A stretch of DNA of 64,000 nucleotides from an archaeon (GTDB lineage Archaea > Nanobdellota > Nanobdellia > SCGC-AAA011-G17 > GW2011-AR17). The DNA is taken from NCBI GenBank assembly GCA_018656555.1, contig JABHZQ010000020.1:10764-74763 (forward strand), read 5' to 3'. The position numbers and the translations under genes were made by a program. The notes under the pieces were generated by a model, which was given only the letters and a program-made list of their open reading frames with translations, had not been told where the DNA came from and made no database searches. Shown here piece by piece: positions 15,678-32,720 of this stretch. Every line of letters begins with the position of its first letter. Position 1 is the first letter of the stretch.

Positions 15678-15814
15678 GCCGAGGTGGCACAATCTGGTAC
15701 TGCGCAGATTGTCTTTCTAGGTTGAAAGATAAGTGTAAGCCTGGAAAGAAGTTCTTTTCAAGACTAGATAGCCTGTTTCCTTTGGATATCTGGGTTCGAA
15801 TCCCAGCCTCGGCG
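15678..15814 (+). tRNA. intron-containing tRNA, isotype unresolved by eye
   Basis: Acceptor GCCGAGG/CCTCGGC with discriminator G; D-loop AATCTGGTA; T-arm CTGGG-TTCGAAT-CCCAG. About 137 nt, implying an intron of about 60 nt. No encoded CCA. The 3' end is the att core of the integrated element. Confidence 0.6.
15801..15814. repeat. attL core (tRNA 3' end)
   Basis: tcccagcctcggcg; the extended match also covers the preceding gggttcgaa. Confidence 0.7.
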
Positions 15815-15840
15815 TAATACCTTTATGGCGTCTATCTTGA

Positions 15841-16575
15841 CTATTTCTTCTTAGCCTCCTTGTTTTTGTTTATCTTTGGTTTTTTCTTTTTCCTCCAATC
15901 TGATACTATTTTATCTTTTTTTGCAATCAGTTGGTCTCTTTCTTTTTTTAATTCCTTAGGAATTTCAAATTGTTCATTATATTCTTTATTTGCCCTTCTT
16001 AATTTTGATTCTTCCTCTTTCATTTCTTTATATTCCTTTGTTTTTGTCATTTTTAAGAATGCAGAGGATTTCTTTACCTTGTTTAACTTTGTTCTGAATT
16101 TCTTTTCGTAACTTACCTTTTTCCTACCTAATTTTTTAAGTTCTGGAGAACTTTTTACCATATCTGTGGCTTTATTCCTTATGTTAATCAATTCTGTGTC
16201 TATTTTGGCTAATTCTTCAAGTTTTATAATATCCTTTTTGTTTTTTATTAATGGAATTTTTTTCCAATTTGTTCTTGCGTTTATTCTTAGACCTTCTTTT
16301 GTTGCATAGTATTTCCAATCACTATCTTTTTTGAGCCTTGCGCCCTTTAAATGATGTAAATTTAGCCTGAACTGAACTTCTCCAACTTTTTCATCTTCTG
16401 GTTTTCTTAATATAATCTGATTTTCATCTGCCTTAACTAATAGTTCCATTGTAACCTCATCTTGAGTAGGATTTTTAACCCATTGTAAAGCTCTAAGCCA
16501 CTCTATAGGAACATATACAAAGAACTTTTGCTTTCCCTCATGCCGTCCTTTGTTTTTATATTTCTTCATAACCAT
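15841..16575 (-). CDS. lysine-rich protein, possible AbrB/MazE-like N-terminal DNA-binding domain
   Basis: 244 aa; the N-terminus FFVYVPIEWLRAL...ILRKPED resembles a swapped-hairpin fold; long KE-rich coiled tail. Confidence 0.35.
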   Translation of the reverse strand: MVMKKYKNKGRHEGKQKFFVYVPIEWLRALQWVKNPTQDEVTMELLVKADENQIILRKPEDEKVGEVQFRLNLHHLKGARLKKDSDWKYYATKEGLRINARTNWKKIPLIKNKKDIIKLEELAKIDTELINIRNKATDMVKSSPELKKLGRKKVSYEKKFRTKLNKVKKSSAFLKMTKTKEYKEMKEEESKLRRANKEYNEQFEIPKELKKERDQLIAKKDKIVSDWRKKKKPKINKNKEAKKK

Positions 16576-16577
16576 CT

Positions 16578-16630
16578 TGTAATGTATAAAGCATTACAGC
16601 TATATAAACCTTTCTATTAGGGTATACCCT
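16578..16630. promoter_or_regulatory. divergent control region with palindromic operators
   Basis: Inverted repeat tgtaatg-tataaag-cattaca (16578-16598); perfect 12-bp palindrome agggtataccct (16619-16630); TATA-like tatataaa and ctataaaat serving the two divergent genes. Confidence 0.45.
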
Positions 16631-16684
16631 TTCAAAAAGGGCACACCCCATATTTTAACTATAAAATGTCACATTATATGCACT

Positions 16685-16843
16685 ATGAAAAAAGAAACAT
16701 ACTTGCAGTTTAGAACAACTGAGGATGAAAAGGAATTAATCCTTAACAATATGAGGAAGCAGAGATTTAGAAGTTTTTCTGAATGGGCAAGAATTGTTCT
16801 TATGAATTGTGAGGTAGAAGATGAAACTAACACAATTGGATGA
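16685..16843 (+). CDS. ribbon-helix-helix (CopG-like) regulator, 52 aa (absent from the ORF track)
   Basis: MKKETYLQFRTTEDEKELILNNMRKQRFRSFSEWARIVLMNCE...: a beta strand followed by two helices; TATA about 20 nt upstream. Confidence 0.45.
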   Translation: MKKETYLQFRTTEDEKELILNNMRKQRFRSFSEWARIVLMNCEVEDETNTIG

Positions 16844-16924
16844 AAATATTGAAAAGAGCTTTTCTCCTGAAATCAGGAAGATTAGAGAGTTCTATTTCAA
16901 AAAAATTATAGGAGGAAATGAAAA

Positions 16925-17185
16925 ATGGTAGCAGCAACAATAACAAGGACAATCGAGACAGCACAACCAAAATGTGAAATAGTAGTATTGACTGTATCAG
17001 ATGGAGAATCTTATCGGAGTAGAAAATTCGAGAATATTCAATCAGCTCATGTTTCTTCAAACAAAGTTAGTGCAGTTTTAACATCAGTACCATCTGTTGA
17101 ATATAATACTTCATCAGCCGTTGTGACAGTGCACTGGTCAGAACAAACAGATCAATTAGCAACATTAGTCCTTTGGGGCAATTAA
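16925..17185 (+). CDS. hypothetical protein (element)
   Basis: 86 aa; SD-like GGAGGA 10 nt upstream; beta-rich and T/S/V-rich. Confidence 0.45.
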   Translation: MVAATITRTIETAQPKCEIVVLTVSDGESYRSRKFENIQSAHVSSNKVSAVLTSVPSVEYNTSSAVVTVHWSEQTDQLATLVLWGN

Positions 17186-17239
17186 GACATATACAAAAGA
17201 GATAATTGGTGTGGCTGAGAAGTCACAAGGAAATAAATT

Positions 17240-17650
17240 ATGAAAGAAATAAAGAAAACAGATTGGATAACCTTTGAGAAAGACAAACATGGTATTCAAT
17301 TAAGAGAAGCACATGAAATTCTTGGTGTATCTACACCTTGCCAAATTGAATTAGAGCAAAAAGGCAAATACAAAGTTGTTAGAAGAGGGATTAAACAAGA
17401 AAAGATTCCTATGTATATTCGAGCAACATTGGTTGCTTCTAATTTTAACAATGATAAACTCTGTGGGATGTATCTATGTTATGGAAATTCCCCAATGATG
17501 TGGATACAGACCAATGAGTTTACTAAATTCAGGTTGAGTGATGATAAACCTGAACACAAAACACCTGTCTATCTTGGGCATTTGGTGTATAAATGTTCTG
17601 CAAAGCAGAAGGGAGATAAAAATGAAGAAAAAGGAAATACCACAAGTTAA
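17240..17650 (+). CDS. hypothetical protein, possible excisionase-like HTH
   Basis: 136 aa; IQLREAHEILGVSTPCQIELEQKG looks HTH-like. Confidence 0.35.
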   Translation: MKEIKKTDWITFEKDKHGIQLREAHEILGVSTPCQIELEQKGKYKVVRRGIKQEKIPMYIRATLVASNFNNDKLCGMYLCYGNSPMMWIQTNEFTKFRLSDDKPEHKTPVYLGHLVYKCSAKQKGDKNEEKGNTTS

Positions 17651-17858
17651 GGCATTTATTGACGAAGACTATAATCAAATTACATTCTGGTGTTGTTTCT
17701 GCCAAACATGGCATCGTCATGGACAAGGTTATGGACACAGAGGTGCTCATTGTCATTTTCATAGCCCTATGAGAGATTATGAACTAATAGGATATACTGA
17801 CAAGGAACTGAAAAAGATTCTAAGAATGGTGAAGGAGCAGTTGGGTATTGTAAAATGA
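17622..17858 (+). CDS. Cys/His-rich putative zinc-binding small protein
   Basis: Probable start at ATG 17622 (the ORF track extends to 17538); CCFCQTWHRHGQGYGHRGAHCHFH. Confidence 0.4.
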   Translation: MKKKEIPQVKAFIDEDYNQITFWCCFCQTWHRHGQGYGHRGAHCHFHSPMRDYELIGYTDKELKKILRMVKEQLGIVK

Positions 17859-19588
17859 AGATATCTAATCAATTACAAAGAGATGATTTGAGGTTTATCT
17901 TATTGAAATATAAGAATAAATCTGCTCTTGAGGAAGGATGGAATAAAGATGTTAATTATTCATTTTCTAATCCAAAATTAACCAAACACATTGAAGAAGG
18001 TAAGAATTATGGGTTAATTTGTGGTAATGGTCTTATTGTAATTGATGCAGATACTAAAAGGTTGAATGAAATCGTTAAAGAGAAACTACCTGAGACATTT
18101 TCTGTAAAAACAGCAAAGGGTTACCATTACTACTACTGGTGTCTTGATTTCTTGAAGAAAAAGGTGTTGAATGATGGAAGCGAACACTTGGGAGAGATAC
18201 AATCTAATGGTTCTTATGTTGTTGCTCCTAATTCAATACATCCTTCTGGTAGGATATATGAAGTATCTAAAGATGTTGAGATTGCTGAGTTAGATAAAGA
18301 ATATATAGATAATTTATTTAATAAATACTATAGTTCTGAAAGATTAGGTAAGGAAGTTATTCTAGATGGTGTTGAATCTGGGATGAGAAATGATAGTATG
18401 TTTAAATTGGCATGTAGCTTTAGAACTAAAGACCTTACACCTGAAGAGACATATCAAACATTGGATAGTATCAATCAAAAGAATAGTCCTCCTCTTTCTG
18501 AATATGAGTTGAAGAAAGTAATAGAAAGTGCTTATAATTATAAGAATGAAGATTACTCAAAGCTACAAACTGAGTTTTCTGATTTAGAAGTTAGTTCGCT
18601 AAGGGATATGATGATTAAAGGTGTTCCAGAGATTGAATGGAGGATAAAGAATTTAGTTCCTCAAAGTGGAATTACAATAATAGGAGGTACTGCAGGAGCT
18701 TACAAGAGTTGGGCTGTTATGAATATGGCAATATGTTGTTCAAGAGGGTATGATTTCTTGGATAAATACAAAGTTGAGCCTTGTAAGGTGTTGTATGTTG
18801 ATGAAGAGAACGGAAATGTTACAGTTCCAGTTAGGATGAAGATGTTATTGCATGGTTTTGGTTTGGATGGTACTGAAATTGAGCTGAATGATATTGTTTT
18901 TTCAATATTTAACAATGTTACACTAGATACACCTGGAGGGAGTAAGAAATTAAGGTATCTCATTGAGAAACATAAGCCGAGATTAATTGTTATTGATAGT
19001 ATGGTGAGGTGTATGCAGGGTGTTGAAGATAAATCCTCCGATGTTAGAGCTGTTTTTGATAACTTGAAGAATATCTTTAAAGATTATTCAGATTTGGCTT
19101 TTGTTATATTGCATCACACTGTTAAAACTACTGGAAGACATCTTAGTATGACAAAACTAAGAGGTTCTGGAGACTTCGCTGCATTTTCTGATGTTGTTTT
19201 GATGTTTAGTGCTTATCATAAGTATGTCAATAGAGTTTATGTTGGGATTGAGAAGAATAGACATGTTAACATGCAAGATGTTCCAAACTTTGCCTTTGAT
19301 GTTGTAAACACTGATAGAGATGGTTTAAAATTAGTTTATTCAAAGGAAACTGCTGAGCAAGATGCTATTGAGGATTGTAAGTTAGACATACTAAATTGGA
19401 TAGAAGAGGAAGATATTAAGGAATTTGCAACGAAGTTTACTCTAAACTCCATGTATAAACTAGGACACAAGAAAAATACTATTTATTCTACGCTAAAGAG
19501 GATGGTTCAAGATGGAGATATCAGTAAACTAAAGCGTGGATTATATCAATCTAAGGAGGTAAATTTATCGACTGAAGACAAGAGTTAG
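17855..19588 (+). CDS. replication protein: PrimPol-type primase-polymerase fused to a RecA/DnaB-like ATPase (helicase)
   Basis: N-terminal GLICGNGLIVIDADTK, YHYYYW and SYVVAPNSIHPSGRIYE (Prim-Pol domain); C-terminal P-loop IIGGTAGAYKSW and Walker B VLYVDEENG. Confidence 0.8.
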   Translation: MKISNQLQRDDLRFILLKYKNKSALEEGWNKDVNYSFSNPKLTKHIEEGKNYGLICGNGLIVIDADTKRLNEIVKEKLPETFSVKTAKGYHYYYWCLDFLKKKVLNDGSEHLGEIQSNGSYVVAPNSIHPSGRIYEVSKDVEIAELDKEYIDNLFNKYYSSERLGKEVILDGVESGMRNDSMFKLACSFRTKDLTPEETYQTLDSINQKNSPPLSEYELKKVIESAYNYKNEDYSKLQTEFSDLEVSSLRDMMIKGVPEIEWRIKNLVPQSGITIIGGTAGAYKSWAVMNMAICCSRGYDFLDKYKVEPCKVLYVDEENGNVTVPVRMKMLLHGFGLDGTEIELNDIVFSIFNNVTLDTPGGSKKLRYLIEKHKPRLIVIDSMVRCMQGVEDKSSDVRAVFDNLKNIFKDYSDLAFVILHHTVKTTGRHLSMTKLRGSGDFAAFSDVVLMFSAYHKYVNRVYVGIEKNRHVNMQDVPNFAFDVVNTDRDGLKLVYSKETAEQDAIEDCKLDILNWIEEEDIKEFATKFTLNSMYKLGHKKNTIYSTLKRMVQDGDISKLKRGLYQSKEVNLSTEDKS

Positions 19589-19723
19589 TTTACAGTAAAC
19601 TAAGTGAGTAAACTACGTAAACTAAGGCTATAGTTTTGTAATCAGTAAAAACACAAACTAACTAACTGAAAGTTAGTTTGTTTACTGATTTACTATAGGG
19701 GACAAACTAAACTAAGACTTTGT
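19589..19723. repeat. iteron-like repeat cluster (putative origin or regulatory region)
   Basis: Three GTAAACTA(A/C)G copies (starting 19595, 19608, 19617) plus an inverted AGTTTAC; perfect 11-bp inverted repeat acaaactaact...agttagtttgt (19653-19681). Confidence 0.45.
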
Positions 19724-20185
19724 ATGATAATAGAGAAAATGGGGGAATTTCCAAGTAAAAAGCATCAGTTCAAAGCTGGTAAAAAGCACCAAATTACTGC
19801 AAAAGAGGCAGGAGCAATAGGAGGACGTGTTAAATCGCAGAAGAAGAACATTGCTCAGAAGTTTAGATGGTTAAAGCAGAAAGGGATTACAGATGAGAAC
19901 TTTGAAGAGTTAGTTCAATGGGTACAAGACAGAGAATATTCTATAATGTATACTTGTGAGTATCTCAAGAAAGCTCAAGATAGTTGCAAAACAACAAGTG
20001 AGAAGATAGCATTAGCTAAGGCATACATGCAGTTAATAGAGCTAAATCATGGCAAGAAGAACATAAATTTGAATTTAGATGTGACAAAAGAATGGAGCTC
20101 TCTAAAAGAGTTCTTAGAAGAAAATACAATATCTGTGGAGGCAGAACAAGATGAAAAAATACATAACAAAGAAGGTAATGAATGA
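19724..20185 (+). CDS. hypothetical protein (position consistent with a terminase small subunit)
   Basis: 153 aa, basic N-terminus, immediately upstream of TerL. Called on position only. Confidence 0.3.
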   Translation: MIIEKMGEFPSKKHQFKAGKKHQITAKEAGAIGGRVKSQKKNIAQKFRWLKQKGITDENFEELVQWVQDREYSIMYTCEYLKKAQDSCKTTSEKIALAKAYMQLIELNHGKKNINLNLDVTKEWSSLKEFLEENTISVEAEQDEKIHNKEGNE

Positions 20186-20612
20186 AGAAAAAGTGAAAGT
20201 AGACGCAAGAATAAAAGAATTAGAAGACCAGTTGAATGAGAACAACAGAAGGCAACAGGAATTATCCAGATATAAGTTAAAGAAACATAACATAGAAAGT
20301 GAGGAGAAGAAACAATATGTAAAGGATATACAAGAGGAAAGAAAAAGATTAGAGAAAGAAGCAGTGACTGAGGTAGATTTAAAAGGTGTTTGTAGAAAAT
20401 GTGGTTCTAAATTAGATATATATGGAGATACATTTCGTGAAGATGTGATGGGTGGTGAAACATCAATTATTCTAGAGGCTATCTGTCCAAAATGCACCTT
20501 TGAGGTTAAACACACTGAAAATTTGAAACTTAAGAATGGAATCAGTTATAAAATAATTCCACGAAAAAGAAGTATCTACAACCTCATAAACAAGGGACAT
20601 CCAATTTTTTAA
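20151..20612 (+). CDS. coiled-coil protein with C-terminal zinc ribbon
   Basis: CRKCGS...CPKC. Confidence 0.4.
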   Translation: MKKYITKKVMNEEKVKVDARIKELEDQLNENNRRQQELSRYKLKKHNIESEEKKQYVKDIQEERKRLEKEAVTEVDLKGVCRKCGSKLDIYGDTFREDVMGGETSIILEAICPKCTFEVKHTENLKLKNGISYKIIPRKRSIYNLINKGHPIF

Positions 20613-20698
20613 TCTTGTAGAAATATTGCTATTTTTTTGACAGGGGGGATTTGAACATCTCCTCCTCTTTGGCCTCCTTAGATTAATTATACGGTTGT

Positions 20699-29062: not shown

Positions 29063-29956
29063 ATGAAAACACCAGGATATAGAGATAACCCTAGACATTT
29101 AGAACAATATCTAAAGCAGATAGGAAGATATGCACTTTTATCTAGAGATGAAGAGCAGTTTTATGGTAGTTTATACTCTGAGAGATGTATGGGAGTTAGA
29201 GAGGAGGCTCAAAGAATTTTGATTAATCGTAATTTGAGATTAGTTGTTTCTATTGCACGAAAATTTCAAGGGAGAGGAGTAGATTTTATGGATTTGATTC
29301 AAGAGGGAAATTTGGGTTTGTATAAAGCTATTGAGAAGTTTAACTATAAAAAAGGGTTTAAGATTAGTACTTATGCTACTTGGTGGATTAAGCAAGCTAT
29401 TCAAAGAGGAATTGATCAGAGTTGTAGAGAGATTAGGGCTCCTGTACATATTCATGAAACTGCAAGGACTTTAGAAAATGCTAGGCATTATTTAAAGAGA
29501 AATATGGATAGAGAACCCACTGATGATGAATTGCTATATATTACAGGTATTACATCTTCTAAGCTGGAAAAGGTAAGAGAAGCTCCTATGGCTGCACAGA
29601 TTTTAGATAGTTTTATTGATGGTGAAAATGAGGAAGGTATGAGGGTGGGTGATGGACTTGTAGATGGGGGGGTTGTTGATCCTGTTGAAGTTATGGATGA
29701 AGATAGAGTTTCTAAAGGATTAGATATGGTATTAGACAATTTAGAAATGATTATGAATGCTGAGGGAAGATCAGGAACAAGAGATGTGGATATTTTTAGG
29801 AGAAGAAAAGGATTGAATGGTTATGCTGTTCATACTTTAGATGAATGTGGTGCTGTTCATGAGATTACCCGTGAGAGAGCAAGGCAGATTGAGGTTAAAG
29901 TCATGTGGAGATTAAGGCATCCTTCTAGAAGAGATGCTCTTGCAGCTTTAAGATAG
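29063..29956 (+). CDS. RNA polymerase sigma-70 family factor (regions 1.2, 2, 3, 4)
   Basis: [61 protein letters not shown]...IRAPVHIHE (regions 2-3); [33 protein letters not shown] (region 4.2). Near-identical to E. coli RpoD in these segments. Confidence 0.8.
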
Positions 29957-29980
29957 TTTTTTAAATCTTTATTCTATTAA

Positions 29981-31117
29981 TTGCGTATGGATATAGCAAG
30001 AGAGTATCATTTAAAGTCTTTGTTTACAAGAGAATTGTTTGAGATTTATTTTCTTTTGATTACTAGGGCCTTATCTTTTTCTATGATTGGAATTTTTATT
30101 CCTTTGTATTTGTTTGTAGAATTAAGTTATAGTTTGAATTGGGTTATTTATTACTATCTTGCTTTTATTTTGTCTTTTTTCCTTTTTCAGTATATTGCAA
30201 CTTTTGTAATTATGAGGTTTGGTGCTAAACATTCGATGATTACTGGTGTATTTTTTACTATAGGGATGATTTTTCTTATTTATTTTTTAAGAGATTATTC
30301 TTTCTTATTTTTTCCAGCTGCTATATTTTATGGAATACAGGGTGCTTTTTTTTGGATGGGATTTCATATTGATGCGGTTTTAAAGGGAAGAAAGAGAGAT
30401 TTTGGAAAGGAGTCAGCGATTATAGAGACTGGTTTGATTTTACCTTCTATTATAGGTCCGATTGTTGGTGGGCTTTTGATTAAGTTTTTTGGATTTGGTG
30501 CTCTTTATGGTGTGGCTATATGTATTTTGATTGTTTCTTTTATTCCTTTGTTATTTTCTAAAGAGGTTTATGCTAGAGAGAAGTTGAATTTAAAATCTTT
30601 TTTTGATAAAGATCATTTGAAGTATTTCTTTATTTACTTTGCACAAGGTATTGGATTTATTTCTGGACATGTTTTTTGGACTTTGTTTATTTTTGCAGTT
30701 ATTGGTGGATATTTATCAATGGGAGTTTATGGTTCTGTAGCTACCTTATTAGTTTGTCTAATAACTCTATTTATTGGTAAGGTTGTTGATGAAGGTAAGA
30801 AGAGTAAGTTTGTGGTTAGATTAGGAACTGGATTTAATATACTATTTTGGATTTTGAAGATCTTTGTAAGTAATATTTTTCAAGTGTTTGCAGTGGGTAC
30901 TTTAAGGAGTGCAGCTTCACATGTGATTGATGTTCCTTTTTTAGCTAAGACTTATAGTACAGCTAAGGGACATAAAGCTATTAGTCATATATTATTTAGA
31001 GAAACTTGTTTGAGAATTGGTCAAATCTTTTGTTTGGTTTTAGTGTTAATAATAGGAAAAATAGAATCTTCTTTTATCATCTCTGCAATTGCAAGTGTAG
31101 CTTTTTTCTTTTTTTAA
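29981..31117 (+). CDS. polytopic membrane protein, hypothetical
   Basis: 378 aa, about 10 TM segments. Confidence 0.45.
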   Translation: MRMDIAREYHLKSLFTRELFEIYFLLITRALSFSMIGIFIPLYLFVELSYSLNWVIYYYLAFILSFFLFQYIATFVIMRFGAKHSMITGVFFTIGMIFLIYFLRDYSFLFFPAAIFYGIQGAFFWMGFHIDAVLKGRKRDFGKESAIIETGLILPSIIGPIVGGLLIKFFGFGALYGVAICILIVSFIPLLFSKEVYAREKLNLKSFFDKDHLKYFFIYFAQGIGFISGHVFWTLFIFAVIGGYLSMGVYGSVATLLVCLITLFIGKVVDEGKKSKFVVRLGTGFNILFWILKIFVSNIFQVFAVGTLRSAASHVIDVPFLAKTYSTAKGHKAISHILFRETCLRIGQIFCLVLVLIIGKIESSFIISAIASVAFFFF

Positions 31118-31338
31118 CCTAATCTAGTGTCTAGGTCATCTTTTTTAGCTTTACCAGCTTTACTGGCTTCAGCTTCAAGATCAACACCAAGTTCTTTCAA
31201 TGCTTTTACATGTGCTTCGATTTGTTGTTGAACCACTTGTAATAGTTTGTAGAATTCTTGTTGTTCAATTGCTAATACTGATAGTGCACCCTTATGGATA
31301 CCAATTTGTTCTTCTTTTGTTGGTTTTTTTTCTTCCAT
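31114..31338 (-). CDS. small coiled-coil protein, hypothetical
   Basis: 74 aa. Confidence 0.35.
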   Translation of the reverse strand: MEEKKPTKEEQIGIHKGALSVLAIEQQEFYKLLQVVQQQIEAHVKALKELGVDLEAEASKAGKAKKDDLDTRLG

Positions 31339-31351
31339 TGTAATCTATATT

Positions 31352-31687
31352 TTGAAGGAAATACTTATAAAGGTTATGGTAAAAATGAGAATTATGGCTA
31401 AAGAAAAGAAAGCAGAGGCTAAGAAATTTAGTTTAGAGGCTCTAATTGAGAGAATATTGCCCAAAAGTGAAGGAAAGGGGCTTATTTCGGGTAGTTATAA
31501 CCTTGCTCAATCTTTGTTGCAATATGTAGGAAAGGGCACAGATTTGGCTGTTTATGGTATTAAAAGCACCTATAGTGCAGGTTTAAAGTTTGCTAGAGAG
31601 AGACCAGAATTGACTGTTGCTTTTCTTTGTGTGGCACCTTTGCCAATATTGTATTATATGCCCTATATTCCGATTATAGGCCTTTAA
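31352..31687 (+). CDS. hypothetical protein
   Basis: 111 aa. Confidence 0.3.
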   Translation: MKEILIKVMVKMRIMAKEKKAEAKKFSLEALIERILPKSEGKGLISGSYNLAQSLLQYVGKGTDLAVYGIKSTYSAGLKFARERPELTVAFLCVAPLPILYYMPYIPIIGL

Positions 31688-32720
31688 TTCTCCAATAACT
31701 ATCCCAAGCCTTTAGAATTTTTTTGTATTTGATAAAAATTATAGGATAATGGTGATGTAATGCAATTAGGAATTTTTCTCTAAATCCTGGTGCGGTTTCT
31801 GTATCTGGATCATCTTTTTCTAGTAATGGTTTTTCAATTCTTCCAAAAGGTGTGTACATATGGTTAACAAATGTTTGCCAGTCTTTTCCAATTCTTTCTA
31901 ACCATGCATTTTCATCTTCAGAATTTACTCCCCAGCCATTATCACTTCCTTTCATTACCTTGAATCCTTTTTCATTTATTCTTTGTTCTATTCTGGCAAC
32001 ATATTTTTCCCAGGTTTCTCCTCTTTCTCTGTAGATTATTTCTGTTTCTTTGGGTAGTTTTACAAATCCTACAAAAAAGATATCTGCAGGATGACCACCA
32101 TAGAATGTTATGTTGGATTTTTTTAATTGTTTAAATGGAGTTAAGATTGCTGCATTTGTATCTCTCCAACCTTCTGGTTTTGCTCCATGGGCAGTTACTA
32201 CATGATTTAATGTGAAATGGACAGTAGCTTTCCATCTTGATGCATGCCAGAATTTGGATCTAACTAGTCTTCTTCTTTCACAACTTTGTTCAAAGTATTC
32301 CTTGTTTGTCATACTTACTGCAATTAAATCCTCTTCTTTGAATTCTCTAAAGTCTTTTGATTGAATGACAAGTCTTTTTAATTCATCTTGAGCTTCCTTT
32401 AGATTACAGGTAGTATTTACTACTGTTTTTTTATGTTTTATTTGAACCCTACAGGTTGGTTTTGAGAAATGTAAGAATTTTTGGAAGTCTAGTATTTCTG
32501 TTTCTATCTCTGATATTTTGAAAGATTGGCTTTTTTGCATTTCATCGTCATAGATGGTGGTATTTCTTAGTCCTAATCCTCTAGGGAAGAATAAGTCTAT
32601 AGTGGGGTATTTTTCATCTGTTGTAAGTTTTAAATAAGGATTGAATTTAACAATAATATGTGATTTTTCATCAGTGCTTTCTACTTTTAGAACAATATTA
32701 TCTACTTCTAGATTACTCAT
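31674..32720 (-). CDS. hypothetical protein
   Basis: 348 aa, no recognised motif. Confidence 0.45.
   Translation of the reverse strand: MSNLEVDNIVLKVESTDEKSHIIVKFNPYLKLTTDEKYPTIDLFFPRGLGLRNTTIYDDEMQKSQSFKISEIETEILDFQKFLHFSKPTCRVQIKHKKTVVNTTCNLKEAQDELKRLVIQSKDFREFKEEDLIAVSMTNKEYFEQSCERRRLVRSKFWHASRWKATVHFTLNHVVTAHGAKPEGWRDTNAAILTPFKQLKKSNITFYGGHPADIFFVGFVKLPKETEIIYRERGETWEKYVARIEQRINEKGFKVMKGSDNGWGVNSEDENAWLERIGKDWQTFVNHMYTPFGRIEKPLLEKDDPDTETAPGFREKFLIALHHHYPIIFIKYKKILKAWDSYWRIKGL

Follow-up and report, generated by a model that had tools for sequence, protein, structure and literature searches.

A sigma-70-family gene of bacterial origin in a lineage of Woesearchaeota, and its possible role as an intra-archaeal transcription regulator

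The use of sigma factors as against TBP and TFB is the textbook divide between bacterial and archaeal/eukaryal transcription initiation. We describe here a gene that sits across that divide: a sigma-70-family gene located at 29063..29956 on the forward strand of a 64,000-nucleotide stretch of archaeal DNA (contig JABHZQ010000020.1 of assembly GCA_018656555.1; hereafter the window). It starts with ATG and encodes 297 amino acids that comprise regions 1.2, 2.1-2.4, 3.0-3.2, and 4.1-4.2 of a sigma factor. Genes of this class have been described before. In its main text, a survey of DPANN archaea reports sigma-70 factors that are "particularly prevalent in Woesearchaeota" (fam00359), with mis-binning excluded (Castelle et al. 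2021, Front Microbiol 12:660052, PMC8204110). According to the same text, these factors coexist with archaeal TBP, TFB, and TFE, no anti-sigma factors were found, and the mechanism by which they act is unclear (PMC8204110). We found no functional study of a DPANN sigma-70 factor in the literature searched; in a metatranscriptome paper on Woesearchaeota, the word "Sigma" occurs as a chemical symbol only. An earlier note on this DNA, made from the sequence alone, implied that the gene was a novelty. That was an overestimate, for DPANN sigma-70s were published in 2021 and the exact protein is already annotated at NCBI (MBT3985165.1, MBT4396662.1, and MBT4441272.1, "sigma-70 family RNA polymerase sigma factor [archaeon]"). 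With the existence of such genes already on record, this locus has its value as a clean test case with good support. It encodes a short protein whose DNA-reading and clamp residues are all in place, conservation of the archaeal promoter is perfect, and three orthologues are available. The gene also recurs in many metagenome samples, among them a JGI sample from Saanich Inlet (150 m). A sigma factor maintained by selection beside an archaeal RNA polymerase (RNAP) raises the question of its binding partner.

We regard it as virtually certain that the product of 29063-29956 is an intact sigma-70-family protein of bacterial origin, most like the primary type (group 1/2), which was acquired horizontally and is now a fixed chromosomal gene. 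The reading frame is present exactly as the earlier note gave it, and the alignments to RpoD quoted there were reproduced against the real MG1655 rpoD. In Pfam, Sigma70_r2 (PF04542) matches residues 53-117 with an E value of 3.8e-22 (78.3 bits; cutoff 24) and Sigma70_r1_2 reaches 28.8 bits (cutoff 22); the match to Sigma70_r4 (PF04545) is marginal at 24.2 bits against a cutoff of 24.1, and that to Sigma70_r3 (PF04539), at 23.1 bits, is slightly below its cutoff of 25.3. Region 3 is collinear with that of SigA and keeps the equivalents of H455 and E458 (residue numbers here and below are those of E. coli sigma-70), and its part 3.2 is strongly diverged. Among NCBIfam models, the sigma-70 superfamily model TIGR02937 scores 81.9 bits (cutoff 42.9) and the RpoD_Cterm match 224.9 bits; the top partial matches are to models for RpoD, SigA, and RpoS, each far under its equivalog cutoff. 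Among proteins of solved structure, B. subtilis SigA is closest in sequence (7ckq_F, residues 4-292, E 1.1e-55), and dozens of further SigA, RpoD, and RpoS chains come after it. Over its whole length the protein shares approximately 36% of its residues with E. coli RpoD and 44-46% with the RpoDs of clostridia; within region 2, identity to bacterial sigmas is 61-66%, near the level usual between bacterial phyla.

The predicted structure is that of a sigma factor. The AlphaFold2 model has a mean predicted local distance difference test score (pLDDT) of 81.6, with values of 86-96 in sigma2, 79-88 in sigma3, and 88-93 in sigma4; the 3.2 linker (residues 178-199) is disordered, and the leading Foldseek matches of the model are all sigma chains from RNAP holoenzymes. 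No PF03979 match to region 1.1 was found in the protein, whose N-terminus lies only 10 residues ahead of region 1.2; PF03979 is present in most bacterial relatives among the matches listed. The non-conserved region is also absent, as judged by alignment to E. coli RpoD, and a lineage-specific insertion of 10 residues is found at the 3.2/4.1 junction (about residues 229-238).

The holder of this gene is, with practical certainty, a narrow lineage of Candidatus Woesearchaeota (DPANN archaea) from marine oxygen-minimum zones. The window carries an archaeal rRNA operon in the order 23S-tRNA(Ala)-16S, with scores of 2531 bits for the large and 1409 bits for the small subunit against the archaeal Rfam models, together with PheRS alpha and beta of archaeal/eukaryal type, an archaeal AdoMet synthase, and TrmB regulators, all of which support the archaeal context described in the earlier note; a diphthamide-synthase fragment is also encoded. 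The sigma gene is flanked upstream by a gene for a cyclophilin-type peptidyl-prolyl isomerase (PPIase) with an N-terminal hydrophobic segment (28488..29027, +) and downstream by a conserved neighbour, a major facilitator superfamily (MFS) transporter gene (29987..31117, +).

An integrase and an att site lie about 600 bp from the gene, at what appears to be an integration hotspot, and they invite the suspicion that the sigma gene is here by way of an assembly chimera or mis-binning, or as cargo of the adjacent integrated virus. The distribution of the locus speaks against an artefact. Nineteen contigs, from independent assemblies in ENA, Logan, JGI (Saanich Inlet, 150 m), and NCBI, code for the very same protein and show the same junctions on both sides of the gene; the order PPIase-sigma-MFS-...-PheRS emerged independently in the assemblies of at least 10 samples. 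Contigs with the identical protein have the order PPIase-sigma-MFS-74aa-...-MFS-PheRS beta-PheRS alpha-TrmB in common. An 80%-identical orthologue (P0002) shows matching synteny in the metagenome-assembled genome of a GTDB species representative, a Candidatus Woesearchaeota archaeon, and a 69%-identical orthologue (P0003) also follows a PPIase gene, so that this gene is the upstream neighbour at all three orthologous loci. Because the same order is seen in independent assemblies and around both the 80% and the 69% orthologue, we consider chimerism and mis-binning excluded; the chimeric join that the earlier note had entertained is refuted by these contigs, and a bacterial bin is likewise contradicted by the data.

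Viral cargo fares no better. The right edge of the integrated element is a 14-nt attR core, TCCCAGCCTCGGCG, at 28439..28452 (+), which confirms the attR that had been placed at 28452; a further 611 bp separate it from the start of the sigma gene on its right, which, as had also been claimed, lies outside the element, with synteny kept in provirus-free relatives. At the locus of the 80% orthologue there is no integrase, and a different small insert is flanked by an att copy on one side and a degenerate one on the other. Because that locus holds another insert and no integrase, the site upstream of the PPIase gene is best described as an integration hotspot, and the PPIase-sigma-MFS block as host DNA. 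No relatives of the sigma were found on IMG/VR viral contigs. An origin in a phage or a defence system was considered and rejected, since the PHROG and PADLOC matches span only the generic sigma domain and IMG/VR holds no relative. Taken with a base composition that is host-like and unlike that of the provirus, these observations refute an artefact or viral cargo and leave it a negligible chance.

The fraction of C at third codon positions (C3) is 0.023 in the sigma gene and 0.027 +/- 0.012 (range 0.008-0.049) in host genes on the same strand, and the gene is outside the range of same-strand provirus genes (0.069-0.11). The skew between G and C at third positions (GC3 skew) is 0.79 for sigma, 0.74 +/- 0.13 for same-strand host genes, and 0.32 for the provirus. 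Third-position G is 0.19 in plus-strand host genes; on the minus strand, host genes are rich in C at this position (about 0.11-0.22) and poor in G (about 0.03-0.09). For the window as a whole, C3 is about 0.03 in plus-strand and about 0.15 in minus-strand genes. What appears in the window as codon usage is therefore a strand-specific mutational bias. The C-poor, T/G-rich usage noted earlier is indeed host-like, although the label of codon usage must be given up in favour of mutational skew. The third-codon composition of the sigma gene has fully ameliorated to the local strand bias, and the gene has therefore been resident for a long time, as the earlier note proposed. In keeping with this bias, GC skew in the window rises to +0.48, with strong asymmetry at, for example, 6-10, 12-16, and 56-60 kb; a skew switch, as would mark a replication origin or terminus, is not seen anywhere in the 64 kb.

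The coding sequence is under purifying selection. As estimated by the Nei-Gojobori method, the ratio of nonsynonymous to synonymous divergence (dN/dS) against the orthologues is 0.23-0.29 at dS of 0.44-0.83, and all three sigma orthologues are identical in length at 297 aa, with no frameshifts and no stops. It could be argued that the gene is a functionless remnant of horizontal transfer that is drifting to loss: its dN/dS exceeds that of the PPIase gene (0.06-0.09 by the same method), regions 3 and 4 are at or under their Pfam cutoffs, and the orthologue group is phylogenetically narrow, amounting to three 90%-identity clusters among 5.8 billion proteins. Drift of this sort is contradicted by a dN/dS well below 1 over dS of up to 0.83, by a reading frame that is intact in three lineages, by the perfect conservation of the spacer ahead of the gene, by the retention of key residues, and by a confidently predicted fold. 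We therefore hold a decaying remnant to be largely refuted and very improbable.

Signals ahead of the gene point to expression by the host. The motif TTTWWA begins at -30 to -28 of the start codon in 36 of the 59 window genes and at other single positions in 0-3 genes. This distribution can be read as the signature of an archaeal TATA box combined with leaderless mRNAs, and it indicates that most mRNAs of the organism would be leaderless and made from TATA promoters. The sigma gene has a TATA-like box, TTTTTTAA, at 29032..29039 (+), in which the hexamer TTTTAA starts at -29 from the ATG; the PPIase gene has a TATA box, TTTATA, at -30 (28458-28463, +), and the MFS gene a TATA-like box, TTTTAA, at -28 (about 29957-29964, +). 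No Shine-Dalgarno sequence was found ahead of the sigma, PPIase, or MFS genes, and a leaderless or near-leaderless sigma mRNA is implied. Since the sigma gene has its own host-standard TATA-like box at -29, it is presumably transcribed, without a leader, by archaeal TBP, TFB, and RNAP. The 35-nt spacer between the PPIase and sigma genes (29028..29062, +), which contains sigma's own archaeal-type promoter region, is 100% identical in three lineages in an alignment of the window with the orthologous loci L011 and L045; with the proportion of synonymous differences (pS) in flanking genes at 0.27-0.50, a fully identical spacer would arise by chance with a probability of at most 1.5e-5 for each pair.

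The sigma and MFS promoters (29029-29053 and 29954-29982) also have in common the composite TAGTTTTTTAA..ATTCT..TAATT. This composite, a pattern defined post hoc, occurs nowhere else in the 64 kb, with 0.15 occurrences expected. It may represent a common operator, a sign of co-regulation, or a candidate autoregulatory site.

The residues through which a bacterial sigma works are largely retained. The earlier note had drawn attention to the interface with the polymerase core, and the region 2.2 part of it proved to be conserved: the equivalents of D403, Q406, E407, and N409, which we take to be the contacts to the clamp helices of beta-prime, are kept as D77, Q80, E81, and N83. Also kept are the equivalents of T429, Y430, W433, and W434 (presumably the melting residues), of Q437 and R441 (presumably the contacts to -12), of R451, H455, and E458 (taken to contact the extended -10 element), and, in region 4, of R584, E585, R586, R588, and Q589 (which we assume to be the -35 readers). 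D403, Q406, E407, N409, Y430, W433, and W434 are kept across all three diverging orthologues. Changed positions include F427I, T440Q, M413Y, F563K, and R596W.

Divergence is unevenly spread along the protein. We expressed it as an erosion ratio, defined as identity to bacterial sigmas divided by the normal identity between bacterial phyla. The ratio is 0.89-0.92 in region 2, 0.68 in regions 3.0-3.1, 0.49 in region 3.2, 0.68 in region 4.1, and 0.72 in region 4.2. By this measure the finger and linker of sigma-3.2, which also bear the insertion, are the most eroded part of the protein; among finger residues, H518 of E. coli is replaced by R and F522 by G.

We propose that the sigma works within the archaeon as a transcription regulator that reads DNA sequence, and not as the subunit with which a bacterial core enzyme initiates. 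We favour such a role because the modules for clamp binding and DNA reading appear constrained, the part that threads through RNAP is eroded, and region 1.1 is missing, and we put its probability at roughly 0.35-0.45. The modules still constrained would be sigma2 and sigma4. The clamp coiled-coil of RNAP is bound by sigma, by NusG/RfaH, by Spt5, and by TFE (Werner 2012, PMC3382729). Because this coiled-coil is a docking site on RNAP shared by all domains, we suggest that sigma2 could dock on the clamp coiled-coil of archaeal Rpo1, on AT-rich promoter DNA, or on both. Once docked, the sigma might compete with TFE and Spt4-5 and so modulate initiation at some promoters only, possible targets being the promoter of the sigma gene itself and the similar one of the MFS gene. 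A stronger form of the proposal, in which the sigma has been re-wired to dock at the TFE/Spt5 clamp site by its conserved region 2.2 surface and, with its intact heads for reading -10 and -35, directs or gates initiation at dedicated promoters as part of a natural hybrid of bacterial sigma and archaeal TBP/TFB, seems to us doubtful, though of high interest if true. Should archaeal RNAP prove to be engaged, the clamp coiled-coil would be an interchangeable docking hub across domains, and such engagement would also explain how DPANN archaea handle an unusually large load of bacterial genes.

The same residues bear on a simpler possibility, that the protein is a stand-alone DNA-binding regulator whose sigma4 helix-turn-helix (HTH), together with sigma2 and sigma3, binds operators, to repress or to activate, with no contact to RNA polymerase. 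Region 1.1, which auto-inhibits DNA binding by free sigma-70, is absent; the residues of region 4.2 that read the -35 element are fully kept; the finger and linker are eroded; and the motif common to the sigma and MFS promoters, defined post hoc as it is, could be the operator. A pure HTH repressor, however, would have no need of D403, Q406, E407, and N409, or of Y430, W433, and W434, all of which persist in three orthologues, and for the region 2.2 surface residues among them we know of no role other than binding of the clamp helices. We think a regulator that never touches polymerase unlikely.

Several considerations weigh against a regulator that docks on the clamp. The surroundings of the gene (22-40 kb) show no enrichment of sigma-70-type promoter matches, with 77 counted where 81.6 +/- 10.1 would be expected, so that a sigma-70 regulon is not apparent in this test, which the AT-rich genome weakens. 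Constraint on the sigma is only moderate, because its dN/dS is 3-4 times that of the neighbouring PPIase. The residues of region 2.2 could have been kept for stability of the fold or for some other partner. Two sigmas from other DPANN archaea (L040 and L042, discussed below) have lost several of the clamp-binding residues of region 2.2, and for that reason clamp docking would not be general to DPANN sigmas. Finally, the genome is viewed here through 64 kb, and a bacterial-type RNAP core could sit elsewhere.

That last point can be carried further. If such a core were encoded elsewhere in the genome or on a mobile element, the protein might be nothing more than its canonical sigma; the residues for core binding and promoter recognition are all conserved, and the inspected part of the genome is the 64-kb window. 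No bacterial rpoA, rpoB, or rpoC was found in that window, the sigma finger is eroded, and the main text of the DPANN survey sets sigma beside TBP, TFB, and TFE without the phrase "RNA polymerase," which is an indirect indication (Castelle et al. 2021). A hidden bacterial core is, in our judgment, exceedingly improbable, and we count it, with the decaying remnant and the artefact or viral cargo, as essentially excluded.

The retention of every determinant for the bacterial clamp and for consensus -35 and -10 elements would also suit an effector that is passed on to the cell of a bacterial partner or host, there to redirect or block transcription by the core RNAP. The DPANN survey raises, in its main text, the possibility of bacterial hosts for some DPANN (Castelle et al. 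2021, PMC8204110). Against delivery, the first 30 residues of the protein contain no hydrophobic run in a reading by eye, no signal-peptide predictor having been run, and no secretion-system genes are adjacent to the sigma gene. The sigma-3.2 finger, on which bacterial RNAP depends to initiate productively, is moreover degenerate, and we know of no precedent for the transfer of a protein from a DPANN archaeon to a bacterium. We judge a cross-domain effector improbable. Of the two roles that the earlier note put forward, the repurposed DNA-binding regulator thus fits better, and the anti-host factor is not favoured, given the eroded finger and the lack, by eye, of an N-terminal hydrophobic run.

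Beyond the orthologue group, identity falls to 39-46%, with bacterial primary sigmas from Clostridia, Bacilli, Margulisbacteria, and the Candidate Phyla Radiation (CPR). In a rough, bootstrapped neighbour-joining tree of 32 sigmas, the three orthologues form a clade with 100% support on a long branch within the primary-like sigmas, and the sister of that clade is P0004, a CPR-like sequence, with 20% support. The phylogeny suggested earlier as a way to the donor placed the clade among primary-like sigmas and singled out no donor, the sister group having so little support. P0004, the best match outside the orthologue group, was considered as an archaeal relative and rejected: its neighbours are TilS, FtsH, UvrB, UvrA, Lgt, and WhiA, and it is bacterial, probably CPR-like. 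A second candidate, P0121 (441 aa), whose profile score of 366 bits stands well clear of the plateau of bacterial sequences, was rejected as an intermediate or donor, being a bacterial RpoD in an L17-Tgt-DnaG-RpoD context (locus L050) with regions 2-3 duplicated, an internal duplication that doubles its profile score. P0131, another bacterial RpoD entry, is internally duplicated too, the duplicated segments in P0121 and P0131 being regions 2-3 or regions 3-4.1. These duplications are probably assembly artefacts that inflate profile scores and mimic intermediate homologues.

The element to the left of the PPIase gene is about 12.6 kb long (~15801-28452), virus-like, and bounded by the TCCCAGCCTCGGCG repeat, the left copy of which (15801-15814, +) forms the 3' end of an intron-containing tRNA. 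This direct repeat was found by a targeted mismatch search, having been missed at the default settings of the direct-repeat search. When Rfam is searched locally, the tRNA (15678-15814, +) scores 35.7 bits, above the cutoff of 29. It has approximately 79 nt inserted in the region of the anticodon arm and escaped both ARAGORN and the Rfam run over the whole window at gathering thresholds; its 3' end is the att core and served as the integration target of the element. The element encodes a Prim-Pol/PriCT/AAA_25 protein (17855-19588), a large terminase subunit (20699-22060), and a tyrosine integrase (27125-28369, -), along with two HNH nucleases, an Imm_superinfect-like protein, and a DUF4190 protein, and it is probably a provirus of a DPANN archaeon. 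A 38-nt repeat occurs in it four times (23388-23425, 24132-24169, 25229-25266, and 25464-25501, at 68-84% identity), overlapping the promoter and 5' regions of consecutive minus-strand genes of the element, and is probably a shared viral promoter module.

Other features of the window deserve brief mention. Downstream of the PPIase-sigma-MFS block, a 74-aa coiled-coil-like open reading frame (ORF) without a family match is kept (31114-31338, -), and a 348-aa ORF (31674-32720, -), also without a family match, is kept on contigs with the identical sigma. At the loci of the 80% orthologue the 74-aa ORF is retained and a 405-aa gene replaces the 348-aa ORF. The window further encodes a eukaryotic-type topoisomerase IB (PF01028; 8567-9538, +), an enzyme whose distribution across archaea is patchy.

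How, then, does the window protein compare with the systems it resembles? Its top NCBIfam and PADLOC matches (237 and 159 bits) are to MzaA of the MZA anti-phage system, by way of the RpoD-like C-terminal domain of that protein. The score against NF041931 is 237, however, where 800 is called for, the match covers model positions 474-712 only, the C-terminal third, and the N-terminal part of some 470 aa is absent. None of the five neighbouring proteins tested gave a PADLOC match, and no Mza partner genes lie nearby. Membership in MZA was therefore rejected, the match being partial and under the cutoff and partner genes not being found.

RpoD and SigA provide the best matches in both sequence and structure. 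Regions 1.2-4.2 are collinear with theirs; the residues for the -10, extended -10, and -35 elements and for the clamp helices are shared; and the C-terminal RHPSR motif is present. The window protein differs from them in scoring below the equivalog cutoffs (TIGR02393, 224.9 against 354; NF006666, 222.9 against 572; NF004208, 217.8 against 555), in lacking region 1.1 and the non-conserved region, in the substitutions F427I, T440Q, F563K, and R596W, and in its eroded finger. The gene differs in having an archaeal TATA promoter, an archaeal transcription setting, and no adjacent dnaG. The group 2 sigmas (RpoS, cyanobacterial SigB-E, and mycobacterial SigB) are closer in build, with about 300 aa and regions 1.2-4.2 without region 1.1; they too have primary-like promoter-recognition residues, and structures of RpoS and SigB are among the matches of the window sigma. 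Even so, the protein is below every group 2 cutoff in NCBIfam (for example, TIGR02394, rpoS_proteo, 204.8 against 378.7, and NF004207, 191 against 394), and it stands on a long branch of its own.

Sigmas from other DPANN archaea make up the remaining comparison. Two were found with the scan pattern WWIKQAIQ: a Woesearchaeota sigma-70 of 569 aa (L040; 8963-10672), which adjoins GINS51, iPGM, and TruD and has an N-terminal extension of approximately 300 aa without a recognised domain, an architecture unlike that of the window protein, and a Pacearchaeota sigma-70 of 292 aa (L042), which adjoins prefoldin, PRPP synthase, and GAPDH. T440Q is present in all five DPANN sigmas, which is not evidence of common ancestry because the scan pattern itself selects for it. 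GGTG/GGGGG Shine-Dalgarno-like sequences occur at L040 and L042, unlike the window. These two sigmas are 25-29% identical to the window protein, less than the 40-46% that the window group shares with bacterial RpoDs; they pair together in the tree (74%) and not with the window clade; no synteny is shared; and the clamp-binding consensus that the window sigma keeps is partly lost in them. With identity so low, no grouping in the tree, no common synteny, and the clamp consensus kept on one side, the window sigma may represent an acquisition independent of that of L040 and L042. The window protein nevertheless resembles the DPANN sigma-70s described in the main text of the survey by Castelle et al. 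(2021) in being a protein of the sigma-70 class from a Woesearchaeota contig that carries archaeal markers and has no anti-sigma factor close by.

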